Assembly (NCBI RefSeq): GCF_000284455.1
Contig: NC_017039.1
Coordinates: 780,001-812,000, forward strand
Direction: 5' to 3'
Source of the DNA: Synechocystis sp. PCC 6803 substr. PCC-P
GTDB taxonomy: Bacteria > Cyanobacteriota > Cyanobacteriia > Cyanobacteriales > Microcystaceae
Length of the DNA: 32,000 nt
Shown: one piece after another, positions 5,471-23,493 of the stretch
Numbering within the stretch: the first letter of the stretch is position 1
How the letters are laid out: each line of letters starts with the position of its first letter
Program-made: the position numbers and the translations under genes
Notes under the pieces: model-generated
What the model saw: the letters and a program-made list of their open reading frames with translations, nothing else
What the model was told of the DNA's origin: nothing
Database searches by the model: none

Positions 5471-5559
5471 TTCCCTGCATTTCTTATTGAGCAAATATTT
5501 TGTATAAATCAGCTAAGTTTTCGACAAGGTCTTTGATACCCATCCCCTATGTTCAATGG

Positions 5560-5716
5560 TCGGGGAACTGGTCCAAATTGGCGATCGTCTCTCATCCGAT
5601 TTCCCTAAGTACACCAACTGCTCAATATCTGAAGCTTTAAAATCAGGTTTTTATAAAGTGGCGATCGTTTGCTCAATCTACTTTTGTAAATCCTGTTCAT
5701 AAAGAGTTTTAGCCAT
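5560..5716 (-). pseudogene. Decayed DUF29-like gene fragment
   Basis: The minus-strand reading from ATG 5716 gives MAKTLYEQDLQK*IEQTIATL*KPDFKASDIEQLVYLGKSDERR. This resembles DUF29 N-termini as I recall them (LYEQDFY.W..Q....L...DF..LD.E.L.EE.E.LG.S.KR). It is broken by two in-frame stops and loses similarity after a HIP1-like GACGATCGCC. Confidence 0.45.
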
Positions 5717-5876
5717 TATAACTACCTTCTATATCAGGGCAATTCAATCCCAGTTGCTTTAGCATAGCGTTTAGTGTTCCAGTTTTTAGTTCATCACTAG
5801 GATTTCGCACAATGGTCAGGCGATCGCTTCTACACTGGGATTACGCACAGTCGCATATTTAACATCAAAGATAATT
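5709..5876 (-). pseudogene. 5'-truncated HicA-like (YcfA-family toxin) remnant with a short internal duplication
   Basis: The minus-strand frame ending at TAA 5709-5711 reads ..LTIVRNPSDELKTGTLNAMLKQLGLNCPDIEGSYNG*. Compare the E. coli HicA C-terminus ..PRHPCDEIKEPLRKAIIKQLGLS. A second partial copy (IIFDVKYATVRNPSVEAIA*) lies just upstream in another frame, across the HIP1 site at 5820-5827. There is no start codon or N-terminal third. Its stop overlaps the ATG of the DUF29-like fragment (ATGGCTAA). Confidence 0.5.
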
Positions 5877-8067
5877 TAAATGGGCTAAAATAGCAAAATT
5901 ATCAAACATTAGGTAAGCTATGATTGAAGATAATCAGTCCCACAATGAAAATATTAAAGAATATCTTAATTACTATAAAAAATTAGATTCTCCTGGTTTC
6001 GCCATTCTTTTAAAAGGTGAATGGGGATGTGGAAAAACCCATTTTATCAAGAATTATTTTCAATTGGAAGACAAAGAAAATAATGAAAGTTTTAATTTTA
6101 AAAAGAAATATTTTTCATTAAAAAACAATCAGCATAAGGAAAATTCAAAAGCAATATATATTAGTTTGTATGGAATTAAGGATATAGAATCTATTGATAT
6201 TCTCATTATACAAAAACTTATACCCATCTTGGCAGATAGGAAAATTCAATTAACTGGCTCTGTTATAAATATTCTTTTAAAATCTTCATTGAAAATTGAT
6301 TTAAAAGACTTAAAAAATACTAAAATTTTAAATGAGTTTACAAATCTAGATAATAAAATTCTAATCCTTGATGATTTAGAAAGGTGTAAAATTGACATCA
6401 ATGATCTACTTGGTTATATTAATTTTTTTGTTGAGCATCAAGCACTCAAAGTTATTCTTATTGCTGATGAAGATAAAATTGAGGGAAACATAATTCAGTC
6501 TTATGAAACAAAGACATTTGACAAAATCAAAGAAAAGGTTATAGGTAAGAGATTTACTGTCAACACATCCTTTAATAAAGCTTTTGAACAATTTTTAAAC
6601 TTAGTTTGTAAAGATGAACAAGAGAAAACATATTTATCTAAAAAACGAGACTTTATTAAAGAGCTATTTGAAACTAGTGACTCTAATAATTTAAGGACAT
6701 TGAAATCAATAATTTATGATTTTGATCGTATTTATTCTTATTTACCTGAAAAAGCCTTAAATAATATTGATTTTCTTGATGATCTATTAAAGTCTCTGAC
6801 CATTCTATCTATAGAAACTAAACTAGGTAATCTCCCAGAAGACCAGATAAAAATATTAAGCGATATATATGGTGAATATTCTTCAAATATTGCTTCAAAT
6901 TACACAAAAATAAGTGAAAAAGTAAAAGAAAACTATAAATATGAACATTTTTTTACGTTTTGTCATCGATTACAATACAAATATGTTTTCAGTTTTGAAT
7001 ATTTTTTGCCTAATTATTTATGGTGGGGAGAATTTTTTGAACATGGCATAATTGACAAGCAAGCTTTGTATCATACATTCATCAACAGTAAGTATTATGT
7101 TAGTCAAGACTCTGAATTATGGCTTAAGCTTTATCACTATGATCGAATTGAATCCGATGAAATATTTGATGAATTAATAAATATTGCTATTGAGAAAATC
7201 AAAAATAGGGATCAATTTGAACATATTGGAATTTTTCTACATGTCATTTCTCTCTTAATATTTTTCTCTAAAGAAGAGTTAATTTCAGAAGATATAAGTA
7301 TGCTAATTCAAATGGCAAAGGATTATATTCAACATTTTTCAATCACGAATGAAACTCGATTTTGGCAGGAAGTTCTAGAAATATCCAATTTTTCTTCAGA
7401 AACATATTTTGTACAATATAAAGAACTTGCGTTTACTAGTGACAATGACTCATATTTCGAAGAAATCAAGTTAACTATTGCAAGAAAAATGCGTTCTATT
7501 TATAATAATAACTATCTAAAGAAAATTAATCAAATTTTAGATACTAATCCTTTGAATCATTACCCACACATGAATCTTGCCGAATTAATCTATCGAAAAA
7601 ATGACGAAATTGAATATTTTCTCCCTAAAGAAGAGTTTCTAAATAAAATTGACGTCAAAAAATCAACTGATTATTTTTTAAAGATAAGCTCTTTTCAACA
7701 AGGTCATATTCTTTATTCAATTTTTAATTATTTTCAGTTGCTATATCACCATAATGAACACAAATCATGTATTGGCTATGAGGCTTGTTTTATCTGTGAA
7801 TTTTTAATTGTAGTTGAGTATAGAAGCATTGAGGCAATTCAAGAGAACAACAGGTTAAATAATCATAAAATCCAAAAAAATTTAAATAAATATTTAACTG
7901 TTAAAACAACTCAGGCTTTAGGCGCATTTATTGTATATATTATTGATTATTATATTTCTCTTATTAGGCAATACAAGAAATATATTGCTTATTCTCCTGC
8001 TATTGTTAATAAAATAAATAAACTCATAGGAATAATGTTTTTTAATCAAAAACCTGATAGCTTTTAA
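5860..8067. other. AT-rich, HIP1-free compositional island (probable horizontal acquisition)
   Basis: Base composition drops abruptly to clearly AT-rich at about 5860, with long A/T runs and Asn/Lys/Ile/Tyr/Phe-rich coding. It returns to host-like composition right at 8067. There is no GCGATCGC between 5828 and 9149. No integrase, transposase or flanking direct repeats are visible. Confidence 0.65.
5920..8067 (+). CDS. KAP-family P-loop NTPase (uncharacterised, 715 aa)
   Basis: Walker A is LLKGEWGCGKTHF (6016-6039), the GxWGxGKT form typical of KAP NTPases. Walker B is KILILDDLERC (about 6355-6384), matching the KAP DDLDRC-type motif, followed by LKVILIADEDKI. A long helical Asn/Lys-rich C-terminal region follows. 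AGGT lies 6 nt upstream of the ATG. Confidence 0.8.
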   Translation: MIEDNQSHNENIKEYLNYYKKLDSPGFAILLKGEWGCGKTHFIKNYFQLEDKENNESFNFKKKYFSLKNNQHKENSKAIYISLYGIKDIESIDILIIQKLIPILADRKIQLTGSVINILLKSSLKIDLKDLKNTKILNEFTNLDNKILILDDLERCKIDINDLLGYINFFVEHQALKVILIADEDKIEGNIIQSYETKTFDKIKEKVIGKRFTVNTSFNKAFEQFLNLVCKDEQEKTYLSKKRDFIKELFETSDSNNLRTLKSIIYDFDRIYSYLPEKALNNIDFLDDLLKSLTILSIETKLGNLPEDQIKILSDIYGEYSSNIASNYTKISEKVKENYKYEHFFTFCHRLQYKYVFSFEYFLPNYLWWGEFFEHGIIDKQALYHTFINSKYYVSQDSELWLKLYHYDRIESDEIFDELINIAIEKIKNRDQFEHIGIFLHVISLLIFFSKEELISEDISMLIQMAKDYIQHFSITNETRFWQEVLEISNFSSETYFVQYKELAFTSDNDSYFEEIKLTIARKMRSIYNNNYLKKINQILDTNPLNHYPHMNLAELIYRKNDEIEYFLPKEEFLNKIDVKKSTDYFLKISSFQQGHILYSIFNYFQLLYHHNEHKSCIGYEACFICEFLIVVEYRSIEAIQENNRLNNHKIQKNLNKYLTVKTTQALGAFIVYIIDYYISLIRQYKKYIAYSPAIVNKINKLIGIMFFNQKPDSF

Positions 8068-10661
8068 TTACTACTAGCAAGCATCAACGTCAGGCGATGA
8101 ATTTGACCTAACTGCATATTAACCCCACTCACTTGCTCAAACAAATATGCTAAATTACGGGGTTGTAGCTGGGTGCCATCATTGCGGCAAGTTCCCATGT
8201 AATCAACAGTAACTCCTTCTGATGTCATTGCAAGGATAGATAAATCAAGCAACTGTTCCCGTAAATTAAGGGTGACTTTTTTGCCCCGTTTGGTTGTTTT
8301 TTCCCACAATATTTCTTCTTGAGCAAGAATTTCTTCCGTCCAGGTTTGCCATTGGGTTAATGTCACCGGTTCTTCAGTAATTAATTGCACTTGGTAACGG
8401 GCTTGGGCCAATAATTGCGTCACCGCTGGGGATTTGGGATCCACTTCTTCCACTTGGTAAACAGGTAAATCTACTGGTAAAACGGCGGCTAAGCGTTGGC
8501 GAAATTCCCCTGGGTCGAGCATTTCTGTGAGGTCAAAATCGACTATTTCCCCGCTACTACTGGAGCCCAAAGGTAAGGCATTGGCAATGGAAATACGGGG
8601 TCCAGGATGGAATCCTCCGGTGAAGGCAATGGGCAAACCTGTGCGACGCATAGCTCGATCAAATAGTCGCACTAGGTCGAGATGACTCACCAAAGCCATG
8701 GAATTTTGCTTGCCAAACCAGACTCTTAGGCGCTGTACCCGGTTAGTGTTGGGTTTAAAGTCCCCATCAAAAACTGGAATAGAGGGCACCGGAGCAATAA
8801 TATTGTGACCAAAATCCACCCCACACACGCCGCAATGGGAGCAACCGTCAAAGGAACAGTCGGGAACGGTGGCCGCTTCTAGGGCGTTAAATAAGTCATT
8901 TTTGAGCCAAGTTTTATCAATGCCGGTATCGAGGTGGTCCCAGGGTAGGGGAGCATCATAGACATTTTCATCGGGGGTATCCCCATGGAAAATATTCCAT
9001 TCTCCGTCTTCTACAAGGCGATATTTCCAGGTTAAATCCGCTTCGTCGATCGCCTGGGCCCAGGCCCCATAGGCTTTGTCCAAACTTTCCCACCAGGCAT
9101 CCATTCCTGCTCCCAATTCCCAGGCACGACGTACCACTTGCCCCAAACGGCGATCGCCTCGACCGACAAAGTCTTCCATGGCGGAAATGCGGACATCGGT
9201 ATAATTCACTTTCACTCCTCGCACCCCTTTAAAAGCCTGTCGCAGTAAATCCTGTTTGCGGCGGAACTCACTGGTAGAAACAGAATGCCATTGAAAAGGG
9301 GTATGGGGTTTGGGGGTGAAATTGGAAATGGTCAGATTAAAATTTAAAGCTCGACGCTGGGGTAAACGACATTCTTGGCGCAACCATTGCACCGTTTCCA
9401 CAATACCTAGAACGTCCACATCGGTTTCCCCCGGCAAGCCAATCATGAAATAAAGTTTGACCTTATCCCAACCCTGTTCCACCGCGGTTTTAATTCCCCG
9501 CAATAATTCTTCGTTGGTCAACCCCTTGTTAATCACATCCCGCAACCTTTGGGTGCCTGCCTCTGGAGCAAAAGTTAAACTTCCCTGTCTAGTGCCGCCA
9601 AGAATGTTGGCAATATTTTCATCAAAACGATCCACCCTTTGGCTGGGCAAAGTGAGGGCAATATTTTCATTTTTGAGGCGATTTCTGATTTCCAATCCCA
9701 CCGCTGGTAAAGCTAAATAATCGGAACAACTGAGGGAAAGCAAAGAAAATTCGTTATAACCCGTTTGTCGAATACCTGTTTCAATGGCATCAATCACTGC
9801 TTCCGGCTCCACATCCCTGGCCGGACGGGTCAACATTCCCGGTTGGCAAAAACGACAGCCCCTAGTACAGCCCCGACGAATTTCCACCGTCAGGCGATCG
9901 TGAACAGTTTCAATCAAAGGTACCAAGCCAATGGAGTAAGCAGGGATGGGGGTGGCCACCCGGCGCATAATGCGTTTGGGCACATCGTCCCGATTAGGAT
10001 GTACGGAACCATCATTGGCCATGTCATAAAAGCGGGGCACATAAACCCCTGGCACTTGGGCTAAATCAAGTAATAAATTTTCTTTGCTTAATCCCTGAAG
10101 TTTCCCTTCTTCTAGTACCAAGCCAATTTCTGGTAACAATTCTTCCCCGTCCCCCAGGGCAATGAAATCGAAAAAGTCGGCATAGGGTTCGGGATTAGAA
10201 GTGGCAGTTTGTCCCCCGGCAAAAATCAGTGGATAATCCCCCTCTTTTCTTTCCTGCCAAGTGAGGGGAATATGGGCCAATTCCAACATTTCCAAAATAT
10301 TAGTGGCTCCCAATTCGTAGCTCAAACTAAAGCCTAAAATGTCGAATTCTGGTAAGTAACGACGGGATTCCAAGGAGAATAAGGGCGTATTTGTTTCTCG
10401 CAGTTTTGTTGCCAAGTCGGCGGCGGGGAGATAGGTGCGATCGCACAATTGCCTGGGTTGGGCATTGATGATGTTGTAGAGCAAAATATGCCCCAGGTTG
10501 GAGGCTCCCAGCTCATAAACTTCGGGATAGGTCAATACCCAGCGCACCGTAGCACTTTTCCATTCCTTGTGCACTGTCCCCAATTCGTTGCCTAGATACC
10601 GGGCGGGCTTATGGATCTCGGCATTAATCAGGGTTTCTACGGGCACTGGCATGGTTTTCAC
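8064..10661 (-). CDS. Uncharacterised radical-SAM protein: B12-binding-like/radical-SAM N-terminal part fused to a DUF2344-type 'radical SAM-linked' C-terminal part
   Basis: 865-aa ORF with the radical-SAM triad in RRGCTRGCRFCQPG. A second Cys cluster, PDCSFDGCSHCGVCG, follows the core. The C-terminal ~230 aa (RVWFGKQNSMALVSHLDLVRLFDRAMRRTGLPIAFTGGFHP) resemble the separately encoded radical-SAM-linked protein family. Confidence 0.85.
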   Translation of the reverse strand: MKTMPVPVETLINAEIHKPARYLGNELGTVHKEWKSATVRWVLTYPEVYELGASNLGHILLYNIINAQPRQLCDRTYLPAADLATKLRETNTPLFSLESRRYLPEFDILGFSLSYELGATNILEMLELAHIPLTWQERKEGDYPLIFAGGQTATSNPEPYADFFDFIALGDGEELLPEIGLVLEEGKLQGLSKENLLLDLAQVPGVYVPRFYDMANDGSVHPNRDDVPKRIMRRVATPIPAYSIGLVPLIETVHDRLTVEIRRGCTRGCRFCQPGMLTRPARDVEPEAVIDAIETGIRQTGYNEFSLLSLSCSDYLALPAVGLEIRNRLKNENIALTLPSQRVDRFDENIANILGGTRQGSLTFAPEAGTQRLRDVINKGLTNEELLRGIKTAVEQGWDKVKLYFMIGLPGETDVDVLGIVETVQWLRQECRLPQRRALNFNLTISNFTPKPHTPFQWHSVSTSEFRRKQDLLRQAFKGVRGVKVNYTDVRISAMEDFVGRGDRRLGQVVRRAWELGAGMDAWWESLDKAYGAWAQAIDEADLTWKYRLVEDGEWNIFHGDTPDENVYDAPLPWDHLDTGIDKTWLKNDLFNALEAATVPDCSFDGCSHCGVCGVDFGHNIIAPVPSIPVFDGDFKPNTNRVQRLRVWFGKQNSMALVSHLDLVRLFDRAMRRTGLPIAFTGGFHPGPRISIANALPLGSSSSGEIVDFDLTEMLDPGEFRQRLAAVLPVDLPVYQVEEVDPKSPAVTQLLAQARYQVQLITEEPVTLTQWQTWTEEILAQEEILWEKTTKRGKKVTLNLREQLLDLSILAMTSEGVTVDYMGTCRNDGTQLQPRNLAYLFEQVSGVNMQLGQIHRLTLMLASSN

Positions 10662-16186: not shown

Positions 16187-16987
16187 TTAGCTAGCGATCG
16201 CCTCCGTTTCTTCCGTTTCCCTACCCCTCAATAGGCTAGAAATTTCATCGCTATATTTAAAAAACTCTGGTTCCCGCTTAATTTTATAGGTCCGATTTTT
16301 CGGAGTTTCTTCATCCCCCGGCAGATTAATGGTTAATTCCCGCTGAATAGTGCCGGGACGGGAACTCAACACATAAACCCGTTGGGCCAGAAATACGGCT
16401 TCCTCCACGTCATGGGTAATCATCAAAATGCTACATTGCAGTCTTTGCCAAATATCAATCAGATATTCATGCATCCTTTCCTTGGTTTGAATATCTAAAG
16501 CGCCAAAGGGTTCATCCATTAATAAGACTTTTGGATGGCAAGCCAAAGACCTGGCGATCGCCACCCGTTGTTTCATGCCACCGGACAATTCCCTGGGATA
16601 AGCTTCAGAAAAATTAATTAGCCCCACCACGTCCAGATAATAACTAGCGGTGTCAAAGCGTTCCTTTTGGGAGCAACCTTGGAGTTTGAGACCAAATTCT
16701 ACATTTTGCCGCACAGTCATCCAGGGAAAAAGACTGTAATGTTGGAAAACCATACCCCGGTCAGCCCCTGGTCCCGTCACCCTTTGTCCATCCACATTAA
16801 TGGTGCCGGAAGTCGGAGTATCCAAACCAGCAATTAACCTCAAAAGGGTCGATTTTCCGGAACCAGAAGCCCCCACTGCACACACAAATTCCCCGGTTTC
16901 AATGTGCATATTGATGTTTTTTAGAGCTACCACTGACCCCCGTTTGCCGACAAACACCCGATTTAAATCAGTTATTTCTAGATGCAT
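16187..16987 (-). CDS. ABC transporter ATP-binding protein (NitT/TauT family); last gene of the riboswitch-led operon
   Basis: Walker A GASGSGKST, ABC signature LSGGMKQRVAIARSL, Walker B LLMDEPFGALD and H-loop ITHD. Confidence 0.92.
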   Translation of the reverse strand: MHLEITDLNRVFVGKRGSVVALKNINMHIETGEFVCAVGASGSGKSTLLRLIAGLDTPTSGTINVDGQRVTGPGADRGMVFQHYSLFPWMTVRQNVEFGLKLQGCSQKERFDTASYYLDVVGLINFSEAYPRELSGGMKQRVAIARSLACHPKVLLMDEPFGALDIQTKERMHEYLIDIWQRLQCSILMITHDVEEAVFLAQRVYVLSSRPGTIQRELTINLPGDEETPKNRTYKIKREPEFFKYSDEISSLLRGRETEETEAIAS

Positions 16988-17043
16988 GGTTTTTATTATT
17001 TACAATTAATTTAATAGTTTTGTAATGATGGAAAAAATCTGAC

Positions 17044-17886
17044 TTATTGTTCCAAAGACCATTTACAAGTGAATCTGAGGATGAGGCGAAATGATAAATC
17101 CAACGCAAAGCCAATTAATCCCAAAACAATTAAGCAAGCAAAAATCTCATCGGTTTTCAAAAATTTCTGAGCTAGCAAAATACGCTTCCCTAAGCCATTG
17201 TCTGCCGCCACCAATTCCGCCACCACTACCAAGTTCCAAGCCGCCGCCATGTTGATCCGAAAGGCGTCAAGAATATTGGGAATAATGTAGGGGGTGATGA
17301 CCTTAAACAAAATCTGTTTCCTTAATCCCCCTAGGGTATAGGTAACTTCAATTAATTCCTTGGGAATAAATTTGACCGCATCCATAATCATCAGGGTATT
17401 AAAAAATATTGTCCCAATGAAAATTAAGGCAATTTTTGAAGCCTCATCAATGCCGAGGTAAATAATTAATAATGGAATAAAGGCTGGGGCTGGCATGTAA
17501 CGCACCACACCAATAATTGGCTCTGTTAGGCTACGTATGCTGGGAAATGTCCCCATTAAAATCCCCAAGGGAATAGCCACCAATCCCCCTAAAAAAAATC
17601 CCCCCACTACTCGCCCAAAACTAGTCAGGGAATCCTGGATTAGAAATCCATCCTTAAATAGCTTTATCAAGGCTTGAATTACCGACTGGGGCGAAGGCAG
17701 AAAAACATCACTCACAGTGGGTAAAGATGAAAGCAGTGCCCACAATACCAAAGGAATAATGATCGATAAGGACATTAACGACCATTTGAGAGATTCGGGT
17801 ATTTCCCCACCAATGCGCCAAAAAACTGTGGGCTTGAGGGATTCTTTAGAGGGATAATCTGATAATTTATCCTGGGCAATAGTCAT
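17044..17886 (-). CDS. ABC transporter permease (NitT/TauT family)
   Basis: 280 aa and polytopic. The EAA-like loop region DEASKIALIFIGTIFFN is typical of binding-protein-dependent permeases. It lies between the binding-protein and ATPase genes. Confidence 0.88.
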   Translation of the reverse strand: MTIAQDKLSDYPSKESLKPTVFWRIGGEIPESLKWSLMSLSIIIPLVLWALLSSLPTVSDVFLPSPQSVIQALIKLFKDGFLIQDSLTSFGRVVGGFFLGGLVAIPLGILMGTFPSIRSLTEPIIGVVRYMPAPAFIPLLIIYLGIDEASKIALIFIGTIFFNTLMIMDAVKFIPKELIEVTYTLGGLRKQILFKVITPYIIPNILDAFRINMAAAWNLVVVAELVAADNGLGKRILLAQKFLKTDEIFACLIVLGLIGFALDLSFRLILRFTCKWSLEQ

Positions 17887-17988
17887 AGTATTAGGGAAAT
17901 TGATTGGCTAACAGAGTGAGCAAATTGTCACAAAGAAAAATCAAAATCCCTCCGATTACTGGTTGGAGATGAGAACTCGAAGTAAAAA

Positions 17989-19017
17989 CTAAGCCTTACC
18001 AGCTAAGGTTTTCACAAACTGAGCATCGAGAATCTTGGTCAGGTCAGGGGCTTTTTCAATAAAGCCGACTTTAGTCATAAAATCTGCCATTTTTTGGGCA
18101 GCAAAGGGCATGTGCACCATACTATCTCCAGGGCTAAAAGCTTCTAAATTTTCCTCTAGAGTTAAAAAGCGAGTGCCATCCTTAAATAGTTGTAGTTCTT
18201 CTTGGCTCACCCCCGCCCGTTTAGCCATAATTTCATCGGATTTTTCGGGATTTTCCTCCATGAATTTACGAATATCAAACCAGGTGTTAACTAATGCTTG
18301 TACTTGCTCTGGTTTTTCCTGAATTAATTTTTCTGTCACGACTAAAAGGTCAGGAATAGCTCCGGGAAATTCGGCGGAAGTAACTAACTCTTTAGAGCCT
18401 TCCCGTTTCAGAGCTGTTAACCAAAATGGAGGAAACGCCCCTACTGCGTCCACTTGTCCCGCTGCAAAGGCCGCCGCCGCCGCCCCTGTTTCCAAAGGCT
18501 TGATTACCACATCATCCCGGCTCATGCCTTCCCTTTCCAGAGCTAAACTGAGCAGAAAATCATCCACTACCCCTTCTTCGATCGCCACGGTTTTACCCTT
18601 GAGATCCTGAACAGTATTGATGTCGGCGGTAACAATAATTTTGTCATTGCCAGCGGAGTTATCATTCACTAGTACTGCCACTTCTCCGTTAACTGCCTCC
18701 CCAGCAAAGGAAATGGTGTCGTTTAAAGTTTGACTATTGCCATCCAACTGCCCGGCGGCTAAGGCTTGCATGGATTCCAGATAACCGTCAAACCACTTCA
18801 TTTCCACATTGACACCGTTTTTGGCAAATAGGCCTTCTTCCTCGGCGATCGCCCAGGGCCACCAACCCGCCCAGTTGCTATAACCAATGACAATGGGAGG
18901 TCCTTCGGGAACCGGAGCAGAGGTTTGGGATTGCTCTGGGGTTTGGGCACAACTAACTGTTAACAGTAAGGTGCTACAAAAAATCAGAATTAAGGAAATT
19001 AAACTACGTCTGGGCAT
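17989..19017 (-). CDS. ABC transporter periplasmic substrate-binding lipoprotein (NMT1/TauA/NrtA-like); probable guanidine-binding component
   Basis: I take ATG 19017 as the start because GGAG lies 9 nt upstream; the ORF track extends to 19047. The signal peptide ends in a lipobox-like LLLTVSC. The fold family is suggested by GYSNWAGWWPW and the overall NitT/TauT context. Confidence 0.82.
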   Translation of the reverse strand: MPRRSLISLILIFCSTLLLTVSCAQTPEQSQTSAPVPEGPPIVIGYSNWAGWWPWAIAEEEGLFAKNGVNVEMKWFDGYLESMQALAAGQLDGNSQTLNDTISFAGEAVNGEVAVLVNDNSAGNDKIIVTADINTVQDLKGKTVAIEEGVVDDFLLSLALEREGMSRDDVVIKPLETGAAAAAFAAGQVDAVGAFPPFWLTALKREGSKELVTSAEFPGAIPDLLVVTEKLIQEKPEQVQALVNTWFDIRKFMEENPEKSDEIMAKRAGVSQEELQLFKDGTRFLTLEENLEAFSPGDSMVHMPFAAQKMADFMTKVGFIEKAPDLTKILDAQFVKTLAGKA

Positions 19018-19100
19018 CGATTTTTCTCCGCTAGTTGTTAATAACATATAAAACTAAATTGAAAAGTTTTACTGTGTTGATTTTGACTTTTTAAAAATTT

Positions 19101-19790
19101 CTAGATAGAAACTATCATCGGTACTTTAACTTGACTCTTAACCCAACTAAACCAAGTATCCAAACCCTCTCCGGTTTTAGCCGATACTGGAATAATGGTC
19201 ACATGGGGGTTCATGGAACGGACGTTAGCGGCTAATTTTTCTAGATCAATATCTAAATGGGGAATGAGATCAGTTTTAGTAATTAGTAAACAATCTGCTT
19301 CCTGGAACATAACTGGATATTTTAGGGGTTTGTCTTCCCCTTCGGTGACACTGAGTAGTGCGACTTTACTATGTTCCCCCACTTCAAATTCCGCTGGGCA
19401 AACTAGATTGCCCACATTTTCCACCAGCACCAAATCAAATTCTTTAGGATTGTAATCTTCCTGTAAACGATGAATTCCCCCTGCCACCATTTTGGCATCT
19501 AAATGACAGGAACGACCGGTGTTAATGGCGATTACAGGGCTACCATATTGCCGCAGGCGATCGGCGTCTAATTCCGTGGTCATATCCCCTTCGATAACCG
19601 CCATTTTTAACTCACTTTGGAGGGCGGCCAAGGTTTTTTCGAGCAGAACAGTTTTACCGGCTCCGGGGCTACTCATTAGGTTTAAACAGGTAATACCCCA
19701 TTCATCAAAATGTGCTCGATTATGGTCGGCACCTGCCTGGTTTGCGTGGAGCAAATTTAGACCGATCGCCGTGTCAATGGATTGGTGCAT
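19101..19790 (-). CDS. hypB: HypB-like nickel-metallochaperone GTPase (second HypB paralogue, not in a hydrogenase cluster)
   Basis: G1 motif SSPGAGKT, plus [26 protein letters not shown] and ITKTDL (NKxD-like). There is no His-rich N-terminal tract. Confidence 0.88.
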
Positions 19791-19850
19791 AGTTTCTTGG
19801 CAGTAACAGTGGACAAGTTAATAAAAAATTTAGTCTCGGTGGGTTAGGGC

Positions 19851-20213
19851 TTAAGCCGGAGTGCACTGATGATGTTCAATGCGGTCAATTTTTAGCTCCC
19901 GCCCGGAACGGATGTCATCCATCGGAGATCGGCAGGTGGGACAGGAATATTGCAAACCAATTTCGGGACTATATTCCGTTTGGCAAGTATGGCAGTAGGC
20001 AACCAAAGGCACATCTTTGATTACCAATTCCGCCCCATTTAAAAAGGTTTGCTTGGTTTGCACTTCAAAAGCAAATTGCAAACTCACTGGTTCCACACAG
20101 GTAAACTGACCCACTAGGAGGTGAATCTTGGTGATTTGGGGTTTTTCAACTTGTTGATCAAACCAATCCTGAATAGTCATAATCAGGGCTTTGGTCATGT
20201 CTGTTTCATGCAT
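19851..20213 (-). CDS. hypA: HypA-like nickel-insertion zinc-finger protein
   Basis: The start is taken at MHETDMTKAL, the canonical HypA MHE N-terminus (Ni site); the ORF is open to 20228. The zinc site is CHTCQ...CPTCRS. Confidence 0.85.
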   Translation of the reverse strand: MHETDMTKALIMTIQDWFDQQVEKPQITKIHLLVGQFTCVEPVSLQFAFEVQTKQTFLNGAELVIKDVPLVAYCHTCQTEYSPEIGLQYSCPTCRSPMDDIRSGRELKIDRIEHHQCTPA

Positions 20214-20288
20214 TTTTACCTCTCCCAAAGGCGATCGCCGATTATTTCAGAGCCATCAATTTGGCAATAATTAGTCAAGTTAAAGTTA

Positions 20289-21461
20289 CTATTGCCAGGG
20301 CTCATCCACTGCCATGTTCGCTTCAGCATGGATATAGGCCGGTTTTTCCGTGCGGGGTAATTGGCCAGAAACCACTAAATGGGCCATGGTGTCGCAAATT
20401 ACCCTGGTGGCCATCAACGAAGTCATGTCGCTGATGTCGTAGGGAGGGGAAACTTCCACCACTTCCATGCCGCAAACGTTAGTTTCCCGAATAATGCGTT
20501 TAAGTAAATACAGAGCTTCTCGGGGTAGTAAACCACCGGGTTCTGGCCAACCGGTGCCGGGGACAAAACCTGCATCAATGCAGTCAATGTCAAAACTAAT
20601 CCAAACGCAATCGGTGCCATCGGTGGCCCGGGCAATGGCAAAGTCCGCCGCCGCATCCAAACTCATTTCGGTAATATCAGTGACGGTCAAAATGTTGGTG
20701 GCCCGTTCCCGACAAACTTTGACCCCCTGGCGGGGTACTTGCCAACCACCAATGCCTAATTGCACTAGGTTTTTAGCTGGAGCGTTGGCCATGTTGGTGG
20801 CGTGGAACCAGGGACAAGTGTGCATCCGTTCGTCTAAGTCCGTTTCCTGGGTGTCCACATGGCGATCGAAATGGATAATGCCGACTTTTTTATCCCCCAA
20901 ATGACGACAGATGCCCCGCACCGTAGGAAAACCAATGGAATGATCACCCCCCAGAATTATCGGAAACGCTCCGGAACTGAAAATGTGGGCAATACCTTTG
21001 GAAATTTGGTCAAAGGATTTCTCATTGTTGGCGGGAATGGTGAAAATATCCCCCACGTCACAGAGACTAATTTGCTCCCGTAAATCCACCCCCATTTCAA
21101 AGTTGTAGGGAGTGTACAAAGCAGAAATACGACGAATCCCCTGGGGGCCAAAACGGGTACCTGGTCGATAGGTGGTGCCAGAATCATGGGGCACTCCGAC
21201 GATCGCCACATCATATTTCCCGACTTCCCGCACATCTTCCAGATATGGAGCCTTCATGAAGGTGTTAATGCCCGCATAGTGGGGCAATTCTCCCCGGGAA
21301 AAGGTGGGGATGGAGCGGTCTTTAATGCTGGCGGCGGCTTCTAAACCATAGGTTAGCCCTTGGTCAACCTCCTGCTGCCAACCGGTCAGGGGTAGCCGAG
21401 TTTCTTTGATTAAGGCTTCTTCAGCTTCAGAAGGGGGACGAAACGGGGTGGCATCGCTCAT
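20289..21461 (-). CDS. gdmH: Arginase/agmatinase-family ureohydrolase; in this riboswitch and HypAB context a Ni-dependent guanidine hydrolase (usually annotated agmatinase/speB)
   Basis: 390 aa with ureohydrolase metal-binding motifs GGDHSIGFP, HFDRHVDT and SFDIDCIDAGFVPGTG. It is the first ORF after a guanidine-I riboswitch and is followed by hypA- and hypB-like genes. I recall the Synechocystis orthologue (sll1077) being shown to hydrolyse free guanidine. Confidence 0.85.
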   Translation of the reverse strand: MSDATPFRPPSEAEEALIKETRLPLTGWQQEVDQGLTYGLEAAASIKDRSIPTFSRGELPHYAGINTFMKAPYLEDVREVGKYDVAIVGVPHDSGTTYRPGTRFGPQGIRRISALYTPYNFEMGVDLREQISLCDVGDIFTIPANNEKSFDQISKGIAHIFSSGAFPIILGGDHSIGFPTVRGICRHLGDKKVGIIHFDRHVDTQETDLDERMHTCPWFHATNMANAPAKNLVQLGIGGWQVPRQGVKVCRERATNILTVTDITEMSLDAAADFAIARATDGTDCVWISFDIDCIDAGFVPGTGWPEPGGLLPREALYLLKRIIRETNVCGMEVVEVSPPYDISDMTSLMATRVICDTMAHLVVSGQLPRTEKPAYIHAEANMAVDEPWQ

Positions 21462-21476
21462 AGGTAGTTACTAGCT

Positions 21477-21544
21477 AAACAACAAAATCTGCCCAGGAGT
21501 TATTAATGACAACACCTAAGCACTGGTCATTAAAGTCTCCCGGG
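21477..21544 (-). terminator. Intrinsic terminator forming the riboswitch expression platform
   Basis: Minus-strand sequence: CCCGGGAGacttTAATGACcagtgcttaggtgttGTCATTAataaCTCCTGGGcagAUUUUGUUGUUU. An outer 8-bp stem (one G.U) and an inner 7-bp stem are followed by a U-rich tract. The 5' arm CCCGGGAG (21537-21544) is also the conserved 3' end of the aptamer, so the two folds are mutually exclusive. Confidence 0.7.
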
Positions 21545-21650
21545 CTTTTGTCCCGCCGTGTAGCTAGTGGCAAAAATCTTTACAAAGCCTAGCCTGTTTC
21601 TCTCGGACCAGCCATTCCCCACATCACCAGGAATCGGAACCCTAGAAACA
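21535..21650 (-). promoter_or_regulatory. Guanidine-I riboswitch aptamer (ykkC-yxkD class, subtype 1)
   Basis: Minus-strand sequence: UCUAGGGUUCCGauuccuggugauguggggaauggcuGGUCCGAGAGaaacaggcuaggcuuuguaaagauuuuugccacuagcuACACGGCGGGAcAAAAGCCCGGGAGAc. All blocks I remember as invariant in ykkC RNAs are present in the right order and spacing: CUAGGGUUCCG, GGUCCGAGAG and ACACGGCGGGA.AAAAGCCCGGGAGA. Confidence 0.88.
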
Positions 21651-21897
21651 ATATCCCCTACCCTAGCTAGGGATGATTAAGTTAACTGTGTTCTGTGCTA
21701 CTTTTTATCGGCGATCGCCAAACTAAAGTTTAAAACCTGACATCAATTAGCTTTTTTTCCCTATCCAGGGATTGAGCATAGCTTTGCGATATCCTGAGTA
21801 TGCACATGGGAAAAGGTCACAGGTCTCGCACCATTGGTGTGATTACTAATTGATCTAACTATTCAGGAACGCAACTCAATCAACAATTGCCCAGCCA

Positions 21898-22407
21898 ATG
21901 CAACAAGCGGCCATCCCAGCCAATGAACAGCAGCGCTTAGCCCATCTACAGAATCTTAAAATTCTTGATACGCCAAGCGATGAAAAGTTCAACCGCATTA
22001 CTAGGCTATTATGTCGGGTGCTGGATATGCCCGTAGCTGCCATTTCTTTGGTTGATGAAAATCGTCAATGGTTTAAATCCATTCGGGGCTTAGACTTAAC
22101 CGAAACTCCCCGCTGTGTCTCCTTCTGCGCCCATACAATTCTGGAGGACCGCACCCTAGTTATTTCCGATACCCTATCTGACCTCCGTTTTGCCGACAAT
22201 CCCCTTGTCCTCGAGGCCCCCCACGTCCGATTTTATGCTGGTCACCCCCTGAAAATACTCGATAATATCCATGTGGGCACTCTCTGTGTTTATGACACTA
22301 AGCCCAGGGAAATATCCGACGACGATGTTCAGTTTTTAGAAGACCTTGCAATCACCGTGGCTAATGAGCTAAAGGCTCACATGTTCAAGAGATTTTTTAC
22401 GGTTTAG
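21898..22407 (+). CDS. Stand-alone GAF-domain protein
   Basis: 169 aa. The whole length aligns with the GAF domain of the next gene (EQQRLA.L..L.ILDTP.E..F.RITR..C..L..P.AAIS.VDE.RQWFKS..GL...ETPR...FCAH.I...........D.RFADNPLV...P..RFYAG.PL.....I.VGTLC). Confidence 0.85.
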   Translation: MQQAAIPANEQQRLAHLQNLKILDTPSDEKFNRITRLLCRVLDMPVAAISLVDENRQWFKSIRGLDLTETPRCVSFCAHTILEDRTLVISDTLSDLRFADNPLVLEAPHVRFYAGHPLKILDNIHVGTLCVYDTKPREISDDDVQFLEDLAITVANELKAHMFKRFFTV

Positions 22408-22461: not shown

Positions 22462-23493
22462 ATGGAAGCTAAATTACCGCAAAATGAGGAGCAACGCCTG
22501 GCAGTTTTGAGGCAACTCAATATTTTGGATACTCCCATTGAAGAAAGATTTGAGCGTATTACCCGTATGGTCTGCCGGTCCCTCAAAGTGCCCATTGCCG
22601 CCATATCAATAGTTGATGAATCACGCCAGTGGTTTAAATCTATTCAAGGGTTAAATGCTTCCGAAACCCCCCGTGAAATTGCCTTTTGCGCCCACGCCAT
22701 CCTCAGGGATGAATTACTGTTGGTCGAGGATGCTACCCAGGATGAACGCTTTGCTGACAATCCCTTGGTAACCGACGAGCCTTTCATCCGATTTTATGCC
22801 GGTTATCCCCTTAATTTGGGTCAAGATATCCATGTGGGAACCCTCTGCGCCATTGATCGGGTGCCCCGGGAATTGTCGGCGGAAGAACAGGAAATTCTCT
22901 ACGACCTCTCCAAAATGGTGGAGTCTGAACTGGCGGCGATCGCCCTATCGGAGGCTCAAATACAGCTAATTCAAGAACTGGATGAACTTGAAAGGGTGGC
23001 CATGGTCGATAGCTTAACAAGACTCTGGAACCGTTTGGGCATTGAAACTCTTCTAAAACGGGAATGGGAGTACGCTACCCGCAAAAATTCTCCTATTTCC
23101 ATTGTCATGATTGATTTTGACAACTTTAAACAAATCAACGATCAACACGGTCATTTAGTCGGAGACGAGGTTCTGCAGGGTAGTGCCCGTTTAATCATTT
23201 CAGTTCTTCGTTCCTACGATATTTTGGGCAGATGGGGAGGAGATGAGTTCATGCTTATTCTGCCTGGTTCTGGTCGGGAGCAGACCGCTGTGCTCCTAGA
23301 AAGAATTCAAGCCACCATTGCCCAAAACCCAGTACCCACATCTGCGGGACCCATGGCAATCAGCTTGAGTATGGGGGGAGTCAGTGTATTTACCAACCAG
23401 GGTGAAGCACTCCAGTATTGGGTAGAACAGGCAGATAATCAGTTGATGAAAGTCAAACGTCTTGGTAAGGGCAATTTTCAACTGGCAGAATAA
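22462..23493 (+). CDS. GAF-GGDEF diguanylate cyclase (I recall the Synechocystis orthologue slr1143 as an active cyclase that interacts with Cph2)
   Basis: N-terminal GAF domain, a coiled linker, then a GGDEF domain with an intact active site GRWGGDEFMLIL. An RxxD I-site (RSYD) lies 5 residues upstream. Confidence 0.9.
   Translation: MEAKLPQNEEQRLAVLRQLNILDTPIEERFERITRMVCRSLKVPIAAISIVDESRQWFKSIQGLNASETPREIAFCAHAILRDELLLVEDATQDERFADNPLVTDEPFIRFYAGYPLNLGQDIHVGTLCAIDRVPRELSAEEQEILYDLSKMVESELAAIALSEAQIQLIQELDELERVAMVDSLTRLWNRLGIETLLKREWEYATRKNSPISIVMIDFDNFKQINDQHGHLVGDEVLQGSARLIISVLRSYDILGRWGGDEFMLILPGSGREQTAVLLERIQATIAQNPVPTSAGPMAISLSMGGVSVFTNQGEALQYWVEQADNQLMKVKRLGKGNFQLAE

Follow-up and report, generated by a model that had tools for sequence, protein, structure and literature searches.

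We have found that three adjacent genes on the minus strand of a 32-kb stretch of the chromosome of Synechocystis sp. PCC 6803 (hereafter the window, whose positions serve as coordinates throughout) almost certainly constitute the gdmH-ghaA-ghaB operon (sll1077-sll1079), the type example of the nickel-dependent guanidine hydrolase system, in which a hydrolase of the arginase fold is encoded together with two nickel chaperones of the HypA and HypB types. The three genes belong to a compact cluster that occupies positions 16187-21701 of the minus strand and are read in the order gdmH, ghaA, ghaB: gdmH (sll1077, formerly speB2; 20289-21461, 390 amino acids) encodes the Ni2+-dependent guanidine hydrolase, ghaA (sll1078, formerly hypA2; 19851-20213, 120 amino acids, with the ATG at 20213) encodes the HypA-type nickel metallochaperone, and ghaB (sll1079, formerly hypB2; 19101-19790, 229 amino acids) encodes the HypB-type metal-binding GTPase.

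The identification is carried by exact matches. A PDB sequence search has found GdmH to be 100 % identical to the protein of entries 7ESR and 7OI1 over residues 1-390, and an exact-sequence look-up has returned the three proteins as Sll1077, Sll1078 and Sll1079 of Synechocystis sp. PCC 6803 (BAA17298.1, BAA17297.1 and BAA17296.1), which are named "Guanidine hydrolase" (GDMH_SYNY3) and "Guanidine hydrolase-activating protein A" and "B" in UniProt; therefore, the window covers the chromosomal region sll1077-sll1082 of this strain. Compared with the GdmH/GhaA/GhaB system of PCC 6803 to which these structures belong, the proteins are identical, the riboswitch and the gimABC neighbours are the same and there is no difference; nothing in the sequence contradicts the reading of the three genes as the guanidine hydrolase operon. 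The first-pass annotation, which was made from the sequence alone, had delimited an arginase-fold, a HypA-like and a HypB-like open reading frame (ORF) here, and all three have been confirmed on the minus strand. It had also proposed a Ni-loaded arginase-fold enzyme that acts on the ligand of a riboswitch, which the structure entries, the UniProt names and the published assays support, and it had pointed to a report from 2021-2022 in which sll1077-sll1079 were described as encoding a guanidine hydrolase that depends on Ni and its accessory proteins; that locus is indeed the one contained in the window. The remark that this would be a recently described system and not a new one was correct: the guanidine hydrolase system at this locus is already known, having been published in papers of 2021, 2022 and 2025.

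GdmH matches the Pfam family Arginase (PF00491) with an E-value of 5e-78, and a motif search has located the metal-ligand motifs of the ureohydrolases at GGDHS 171-175, DRHVD 199-203 and SFDIDCID 289-296; because these motifs are retained, the change of metal is invisible in the ligand set. To our knowledge, the use of nickel by an arginase-fold enzyme was first shown for GdmH. Its Ni2+ dependence and its activation by nickel chaperones were reportedly described by Funck et al. in 2022 (Nature 603:515). Passages of PMC12704784, PMC11399263 and PMC10927577 cite that work for both properties, and the activation by nickel chaperones is stated in PMC11399263. The Pfam arginase domain begins at residue 84, and ahead of it GdmH carries an N-terminal extension of about 60 residues, as described in PMC10927577. 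The substrate has been addressed in PMC8390497 (Wang et al. 2021, Nat Commun), according to which Sll1077 forms urea from guanidine and not from agmatine: guanidine was degraded by extracts expressing Sll1077, agmatine was not, and the sll1077 knockout was sensitive to guanidine. The same paper reports a guanidine riboswitch motif ahead of the sll1077 ORF, and homologues that often occur in operons with hypA, hypB and the transporter genes sll1080-1082.

The two proteins encoded after GdmH have the family assignments that their names imply. GhaA matches HypA (PF01155) at E 4e-31 and scores 145.3 bits against the NCBIfam model hypA TIGR00100 (cut-off 88.1), while GhaB matches CobW/HypB/UreG (PF02492) at E 2e-26, scores 328.1 bits against hypB TIGR00073 (cut-off 121.2) and is homologous to the HypB of PDB entry 2HF8 at E 2e-48. 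The assignment of GhaA is based on Pfam, NCBIfam and motifs; a PDB sequence search with this protein has given no match at E <= 1e-3. All the HypA and HypB motifs that had been quoted for the pair are present, namely MHE 1-3, the nickel site, and CHTC 74-77 with CPTC 91-94, the CxxC...CxxC zinc site, in GhaA, and SSPGAGKT 40-47 (Walker A) with CHLDA 95-99 in GhaB, where NVGNLVCP 125-132 and TKTD 171-174 (NKxD-type G4) are also found; an N-terminal CxxCGC or His-rich high-affinity nickel site is absent from GhaB as judged by reading its sequence.

The spacing of the genes depends on where the HypA-like protein starts. Its ORF extends over 19851-20228 and encodes 125 amino acids if it is read from an upstream in-frame TTG, and the form of 120 amino acids that starts with MHE at ATG 20213 is the one recorded at NCBI and UniProt. 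Because the protein starts at this ATG, the spacer between gdmH and ghaA is 75 nucleotides; the earlier figure of about 60 nucleotides is right for the ghaA-ghaB spacer (60 nucleotides), while between gdmH and ghaA it is reached only by counting to the TTG.

In their family models and in their nickel, zinc and GTPase motifs, GhaA and GhaB agree with the HypA and HypB proteins that act in the maturation of [NiFe]-hydrogenase and of Helicobacter urease; they differ from the hydrogenase proteins in their client, which is an arginase-fold hydrolase, the hydrogenase of Synechocystis being served by the paralogues HypA1/HypB1. It had been claimed that no hydrogenase genes are located nearby, and a Pfam scan of 24 of the 29 window ORFs of at least 100 amino acids, the other five of which each overlap a scanned ORF, has found neither hydrogenase subunits nor hypCDEF. 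According to PMC4517062, the Hox hydrogenase requires HypA1/HypB1 alone, and HypA2/HypB2 likely mature another metalloprotein; both observations speak against a role of GhaA and GhaB in hydrogenase maturation.

The riboswitch that the first-pass annotation had alluded to exists: a guanidine-I (ykkC) aptamer is located in the 5' leader of gdmH at 21535-21656 on the minus strand, as a full-length match to Rfam RF00442 with a score of 84.8 bits (E 5.4e-14; gathering score 63 bits), and this is the only Rfam family that reaches the gathering level in the whole window. The RF00442 element has been found to bind guanidine with a Kd of ~58 uM by in-line probing, and a G16C mutant showed neither binding nor induction of a reporter (PMC12704784).

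The expression platform (21477-21545, minus strand) contains a predicted intrinsic terminator, which we have delimited by folding and by a comparative test. The 5' arm of the terminator, GCCCGGGAG (21537-21545), is the 3' strand of the aptamer stem P3; it pairs with the 3' arm CUCCUGGGC (21491-21499), directly after which follows the tract AGAUUUUGUUGUUU (21477-21490). The fold of positions 21462-21560 is a long hairpin with a minimum free energy of -34.2 kcal/mol (z = -3.4). In 60 of 61 orthologous leaders, an arm complementary to P3 is likewise located 21-41 nucleotides downstream and is followed by a T-rich tract, as compared with 4.3 on average and at most 10 in shuffled sequences. A generic promoter and terminator scanner has missed this terminator, the loop of which is longer than the 3-8 nucleotides that the scanner allows, and the scanner totals are at the level of shuffled sequence (promoters 12 vs 9.3, terminators 9 vs 7.8); therefore, folding and the comparative test were used. 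The layout of the leader supports a classic guanidine-I ON-switch, in which the putative terminator overlapping P3 would be a small addition to the published work, and the computed structures suggest that the switching proceeds by transcription termination.

Upstream of the riboswitch, a pattern search has located an NtcA-like box, GTAGCACAGAACAC (GTA-N8-CAC; 21688-21701, minus strand), which is a candidate nitrogen-control site of the gdmH promoter. This box is probably the published NtcA site of gdmH, which is described in PMC12704784 as a partial NtcA consensus upstream of the gene, centred near -42, with support from published chromatin immunoprecipitation sequencing and electrophoretic mobility shift assays. 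A second candidate box, GTATCGGCTAAAAC (GTA-N8-AAC; 19174-19187, minus strand), has been located by the same search within ghaB, at its 3' end and upstream of gimA. Both candidates are consistent with the published description (PMC12704784, in PNAS, 2025), in which gdmH-ghaA-ghaB form one NtcA-induced transcript (TU795) and gimABC have their own promoter, an internal NtcA-dependent one upstream of gimA (TU794).

The genes downstream of ghaB (16187-19047) encode a NitT/TauT-type transporter of the ATP-binding cassette (ABC) class and are located on the same strand: gimA (sll1080; 17989-19047) encodes the periplasmic guanidine-binding protein of the importer (Pfam NMT1_2/NMT1; NCBIfam SsuA_fam, 341 bits), gimB (sll1081; 17044-17886) the permease (Pfam BPD_transp_1, E 6e-24) and gimC (sll1082; 16187-16987) the ATPase (Pfam ABC_tran, E 1.5e-34), the last two being named after PMC12704784. 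In that paper, GimABC is the guanidine importer, and GimA (Sll1080) binds guanidine with a KD of 97 +/- 51 nM, as determined by isothermal titration calorimetry.

From these elements and the published work, the following course of events emerges. When nitrogen is limiting, transcription begins at the NtcA-activated promoter and reaches the guanidine-I riboswitch; as long as guanidine is lacking, P3 would pair downstream through its 3' strand, so that the intrinsic terminator forms and the transcript stops before gdmH, while bound guanidine would hold P3 in the aptamer, block the terminator and allow the operon to be read through. Ni2+ would be delivered into apo-GdmH jointly by the HypA-type GhaA, which has its nickel site at MHE and binds zinc at a Cys4 site, and by the HypB-type GTPase GhaB, the metal site of which is made up of Cys-His-Cys; the hand-over of nickel from GhaB/GhaA to GdmH is presumably driven by GTP. 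GdmH is a homo-oligomeric arginase-fold enzyme, with two Ni2+ instead of Mn2+ in the canonical His/Asp binuclear site, and hydrolyses free guanidine to urea and ammonium, while the products of the downstream gimABC genes import guanidine at low concentration.

Species-representative genomes have been scanned with the enzyme, which has given at least 584 relatives; the best 80 loci, with 86-98 % identity to GdmH, have been examined, and the closest among the matches listed is that of Synechocystis salina (98 %). By tblastn with the window proteins in flanks of 6 kb, ghaA has been found in 75 of the 80 gdmH loci, ghaB in 72 and gimA in 43, nearly always on the same strand as gdmH and downstream of it; several of the loci without a match are located at contig ends. 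In 78 of the loci the sequence extends far enough upstream, and 61 of these have the three-part core of the guanidine-I riboswitch within 450 nucleotides upstream of gdmH. With these frequencies for ghaA, ghaB and the riboswitch core, it follows that enzyme, chaperones and riboswitch are linked as a conserved unit and are not neighbours by chance.

Two caveats apply to the reading of the cluster as a single riboswitch-controlled unit of hydrolase and chaperones. Loci L015 and L052, whose 6-kb flanks are complete, have neither ghaA nor ghaB within 6 kb of gdmH, the riboswitch core being present in L052 and absent from L015; physical linkage is therefore common, but not obligatory, and the chaperone genes can be unlinked from gdmH or absent at some loci. 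In three further loci (L051, L054 and L059) no ghaA or ghaB is found in the flanks either, but these flanks are cut by contig ends. The other caveat concerns the leader, where the proposed terminator mechanism is a computational prediction, and PMC12704784 likewise only infers a transcriptional ON switch, by analogy.

All but one of the 80 loci are labelled cyanobacterial or unclassified. The exception, L009 (contig CALRTB020000002.1), is labelled as a metagenome-assembled genome of Sphingobacterium thalpophilum and carries a gdmH of the cyanobacterial type (89 % identity); it looks like a mis-binned contig. Its gene order is ghaA-ghaB-gimABC-gdmH, an alternative arrangement that is also found in L028, and no riboswitch core is located directly upstream of its gdmH.

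The old annotation implies another reading of the cluster, in which the enzyme is the agmatinase SpeB2, dependent on Mn and active in polyamine or arginine catabolism, next to which HypA2/HypB2 are encoded as spare hydrogenase maturation factors. In RefSeq, GenBank and IMG, the members of the 90 % cluster are called "agmatinase" or "agmatinase family protein", and the chaperones "hydrogenase maturation nickel metallochaperone HypA" and "hydrogenase nickel incorporation protein HypB"; the neighbours do clear the hypA and hypB equivalogs, and GdmH itself passes the NCBIfam agmatinase equivalog TIGR01230, although by 2 bits (176.2 vs the cut-off of 174.3), which is the likely reason why the name persists. 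The earlier suspicion that the enzyme is misannotated as an agmatinase thus holds: GdmH stays far below the cut-off of PRK02190, the model of the agmatinase subfamily (211.9 vs 302 bits), its leader contains a guanidine riboswitch, the linkage of the enzyme with HypA and HypB is kept in 72-75 of the 80 loci, the window is free of hydrogenase genes and the hydrogenase needs only HypA1/HypB1 (PMC4517062), while the Sll1077 extracts acted on guanidine and left agmatine undegraded (PMC8390497). We have rejected the combination of an agmatinase with spare hydrogenase chaperones, which the published enzyme assays have already refuted and to which we assign practically no probability; GdmH is homologous to agmatinases, but it is not one. 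With the Mn-dependent SpeB and guanidino-acid hydrolases (PDB 7LOL, 3NIO, 3NIP and 1GQ6; E 1e-36 to 6e-49), GdmH has in common the fold and the six His/Asp metal-ligand motifs. Unlike GdmH, these are Mn2+ enzymes that do without maturation factors and take substituted guanidines as substrates, and control by a guanidine riboswitch is not recorded for them in the literature cited here; their alignments start at GdmH residues ~55-84, leaving the N-terminal ~55-80 residues of GdmH uncovered.

It may also be asked whether GhaA and GhaB are dedicated to GdmH at all, or whether they are general nickel chaperones, e.g. also for urease, that are co-transcribed with gdmH only to raise the nickel supply. 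The HypA/HypB proteins of Helicobacter serve both hydrogenase and urease, GdmH makes urea, for the use of which Synechocystis needs the nickel enzyme urease, and the two gdmH loci with complete flanks that are free of ghaA and ghaB would also fit such a general role; cyanobacterial urease, however, has its own UreDEFG accessory set, and the chaperone genes are tightly and conservedly located next to gdmH and are co-transcribed with it. The published activation of recombinant GdmH by the co-expressed chaperones (PMC11399263, PMC10927577) is a further argument for dedicated chaperones, and we consider a general role of GhaA and GhaB to be very improbable.

A guanidine hydrolase with dedicated chaperones has a close parallel in the metformin hydrolase MfmAB/MefH (PDB 8SNF and 8RYI), a homologue of GdmH in the PDB sequence search (E 1e-38). 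Both enzymes have the arginase fold, a di-nickel centre, activation by co-encoded HypA/HypB proteins and an N-terminal extension, which in metformin hydrolase is located at subunit interfaces (PMC11399263, PMC10927577). In contrast to GdmH, metformin hydrolase is a heteromer of two paralogous subunits and its substrate is metformin or dimethylguanidine; at the level of the locus, its chaperone genes are located upstream, a HupE nickel transporter is present and no guanidine-I riboswitch has been reported. The N-terminal extension is common to GdmH and metformin hydrolase and lies outside the alignments to the Mn enzymes; it could be a docking determinant for the chaperones. That this is so and that, in addition, extra operon genes of some cyanobacteria extend the pathway is, as a joint proposal, speculative and in our view rather unlikely.

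Such extra genes are of three kinds. A gene of the glutamine synthetase family, of ~455-474 amino acids (Pfam Gln-synt_C, E 1e-96), is present in 8 of the 80 gdmH loci: in seven of these it is located between ghaA and ghaB (L007, positions 7655-9079; L004, L010, L024, L029, L047 and L049), and in L077 it is located downstream. A glutamine synthetase adjoining gdmH in Synechococcus WH8020 is described in PMC12704784, where the position within the operon is not mentioned. A methyltransferase dependent on S-adenosylmethionine (Methyltransf_11), a glutathione S-transferase, or both, are encoded just downstream of gdmH in 7-9 of the 80 loci (methyltransferase: L006, positions 7256-8649, L012, L016, L021, L039, L044 and L076; glutathione S-transferase: L027, L079 and L080), i.e. 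between gdmH and ghaA where the positions have been checked. Several of these loci carry names of the Pleurocapsales type (Hyella, Xenococcaceae, Waterburya, Myxosarcina and Pleurocapsa), and a term search of PMC12704784 has found no mention of "methyltransferase" or "glutathione". The additional glutamine synthetase, methyltransferase and glutathione S-transferase genes might extend the pathway, e.g. towards substituted guanidines or the local capture of ammonium.

The biological value of the system lies in an arginase-fold enzyme that uses nickel and depends on chaperones of the hydrogenase type; the system explains the "agmatinase" genes that follow guanidine riboswitches, and through it guanidine becomes a nitrogen source for cyanobacteria. 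This value has already been realised in the papers of 2021, 2022 and 2025, which deal with this very locus. A practical matter is left: RefSeq, GenBank and IMG continue to pass on the names "agmatinase", "HypA" and "HypB", and with TIGR01230 being passed by so narrow a margin, genome scans will therefore keep re-flagging GdmH.

The rest of the window encodes argininosuccinate lyase, a NUDIX protein, a KAP nucleoside triphosphatase (NTPase), radical-SAM proteins, cytochrome c oxidase subunits II, I and III, thioredoxin, a DegT-type aminotransferase, two GAF proteins, a P-type ATPase, leucyl-tRNA synthetase and a glutamate symporter. The GAF proteins (21898-22407 and 22462-23493, both on the plus strand) are tandem paralogues with similar N-termini, one of which consists of GAF only, while the other is a GAF-GGDEF diguanylate cyclase. 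Their genes run divergently from the promoter and riboswitch region of gdmH, and because of this divergence the 240-nucleotide intergenic stretch 21657-21897 must hold both promoters.

The KAP-family P-loop NTPase is encoded by an ORF of 715 amino acids (5920-8067, plus strand) inside a stretch of low guanine-cytosine content (~5500-8100; 25-27 % vs ~47 % in the rest of the window) and has a match in PADLOC to PDC-S49, a candidate single-gene anti-phage system (E 3.6e-123); the ORF is probably a defence gene that was acquired horizontally. With its stop it overlaps the end of a convergent radical-SAM ORF (8064-10661) by 4 nucleotides.

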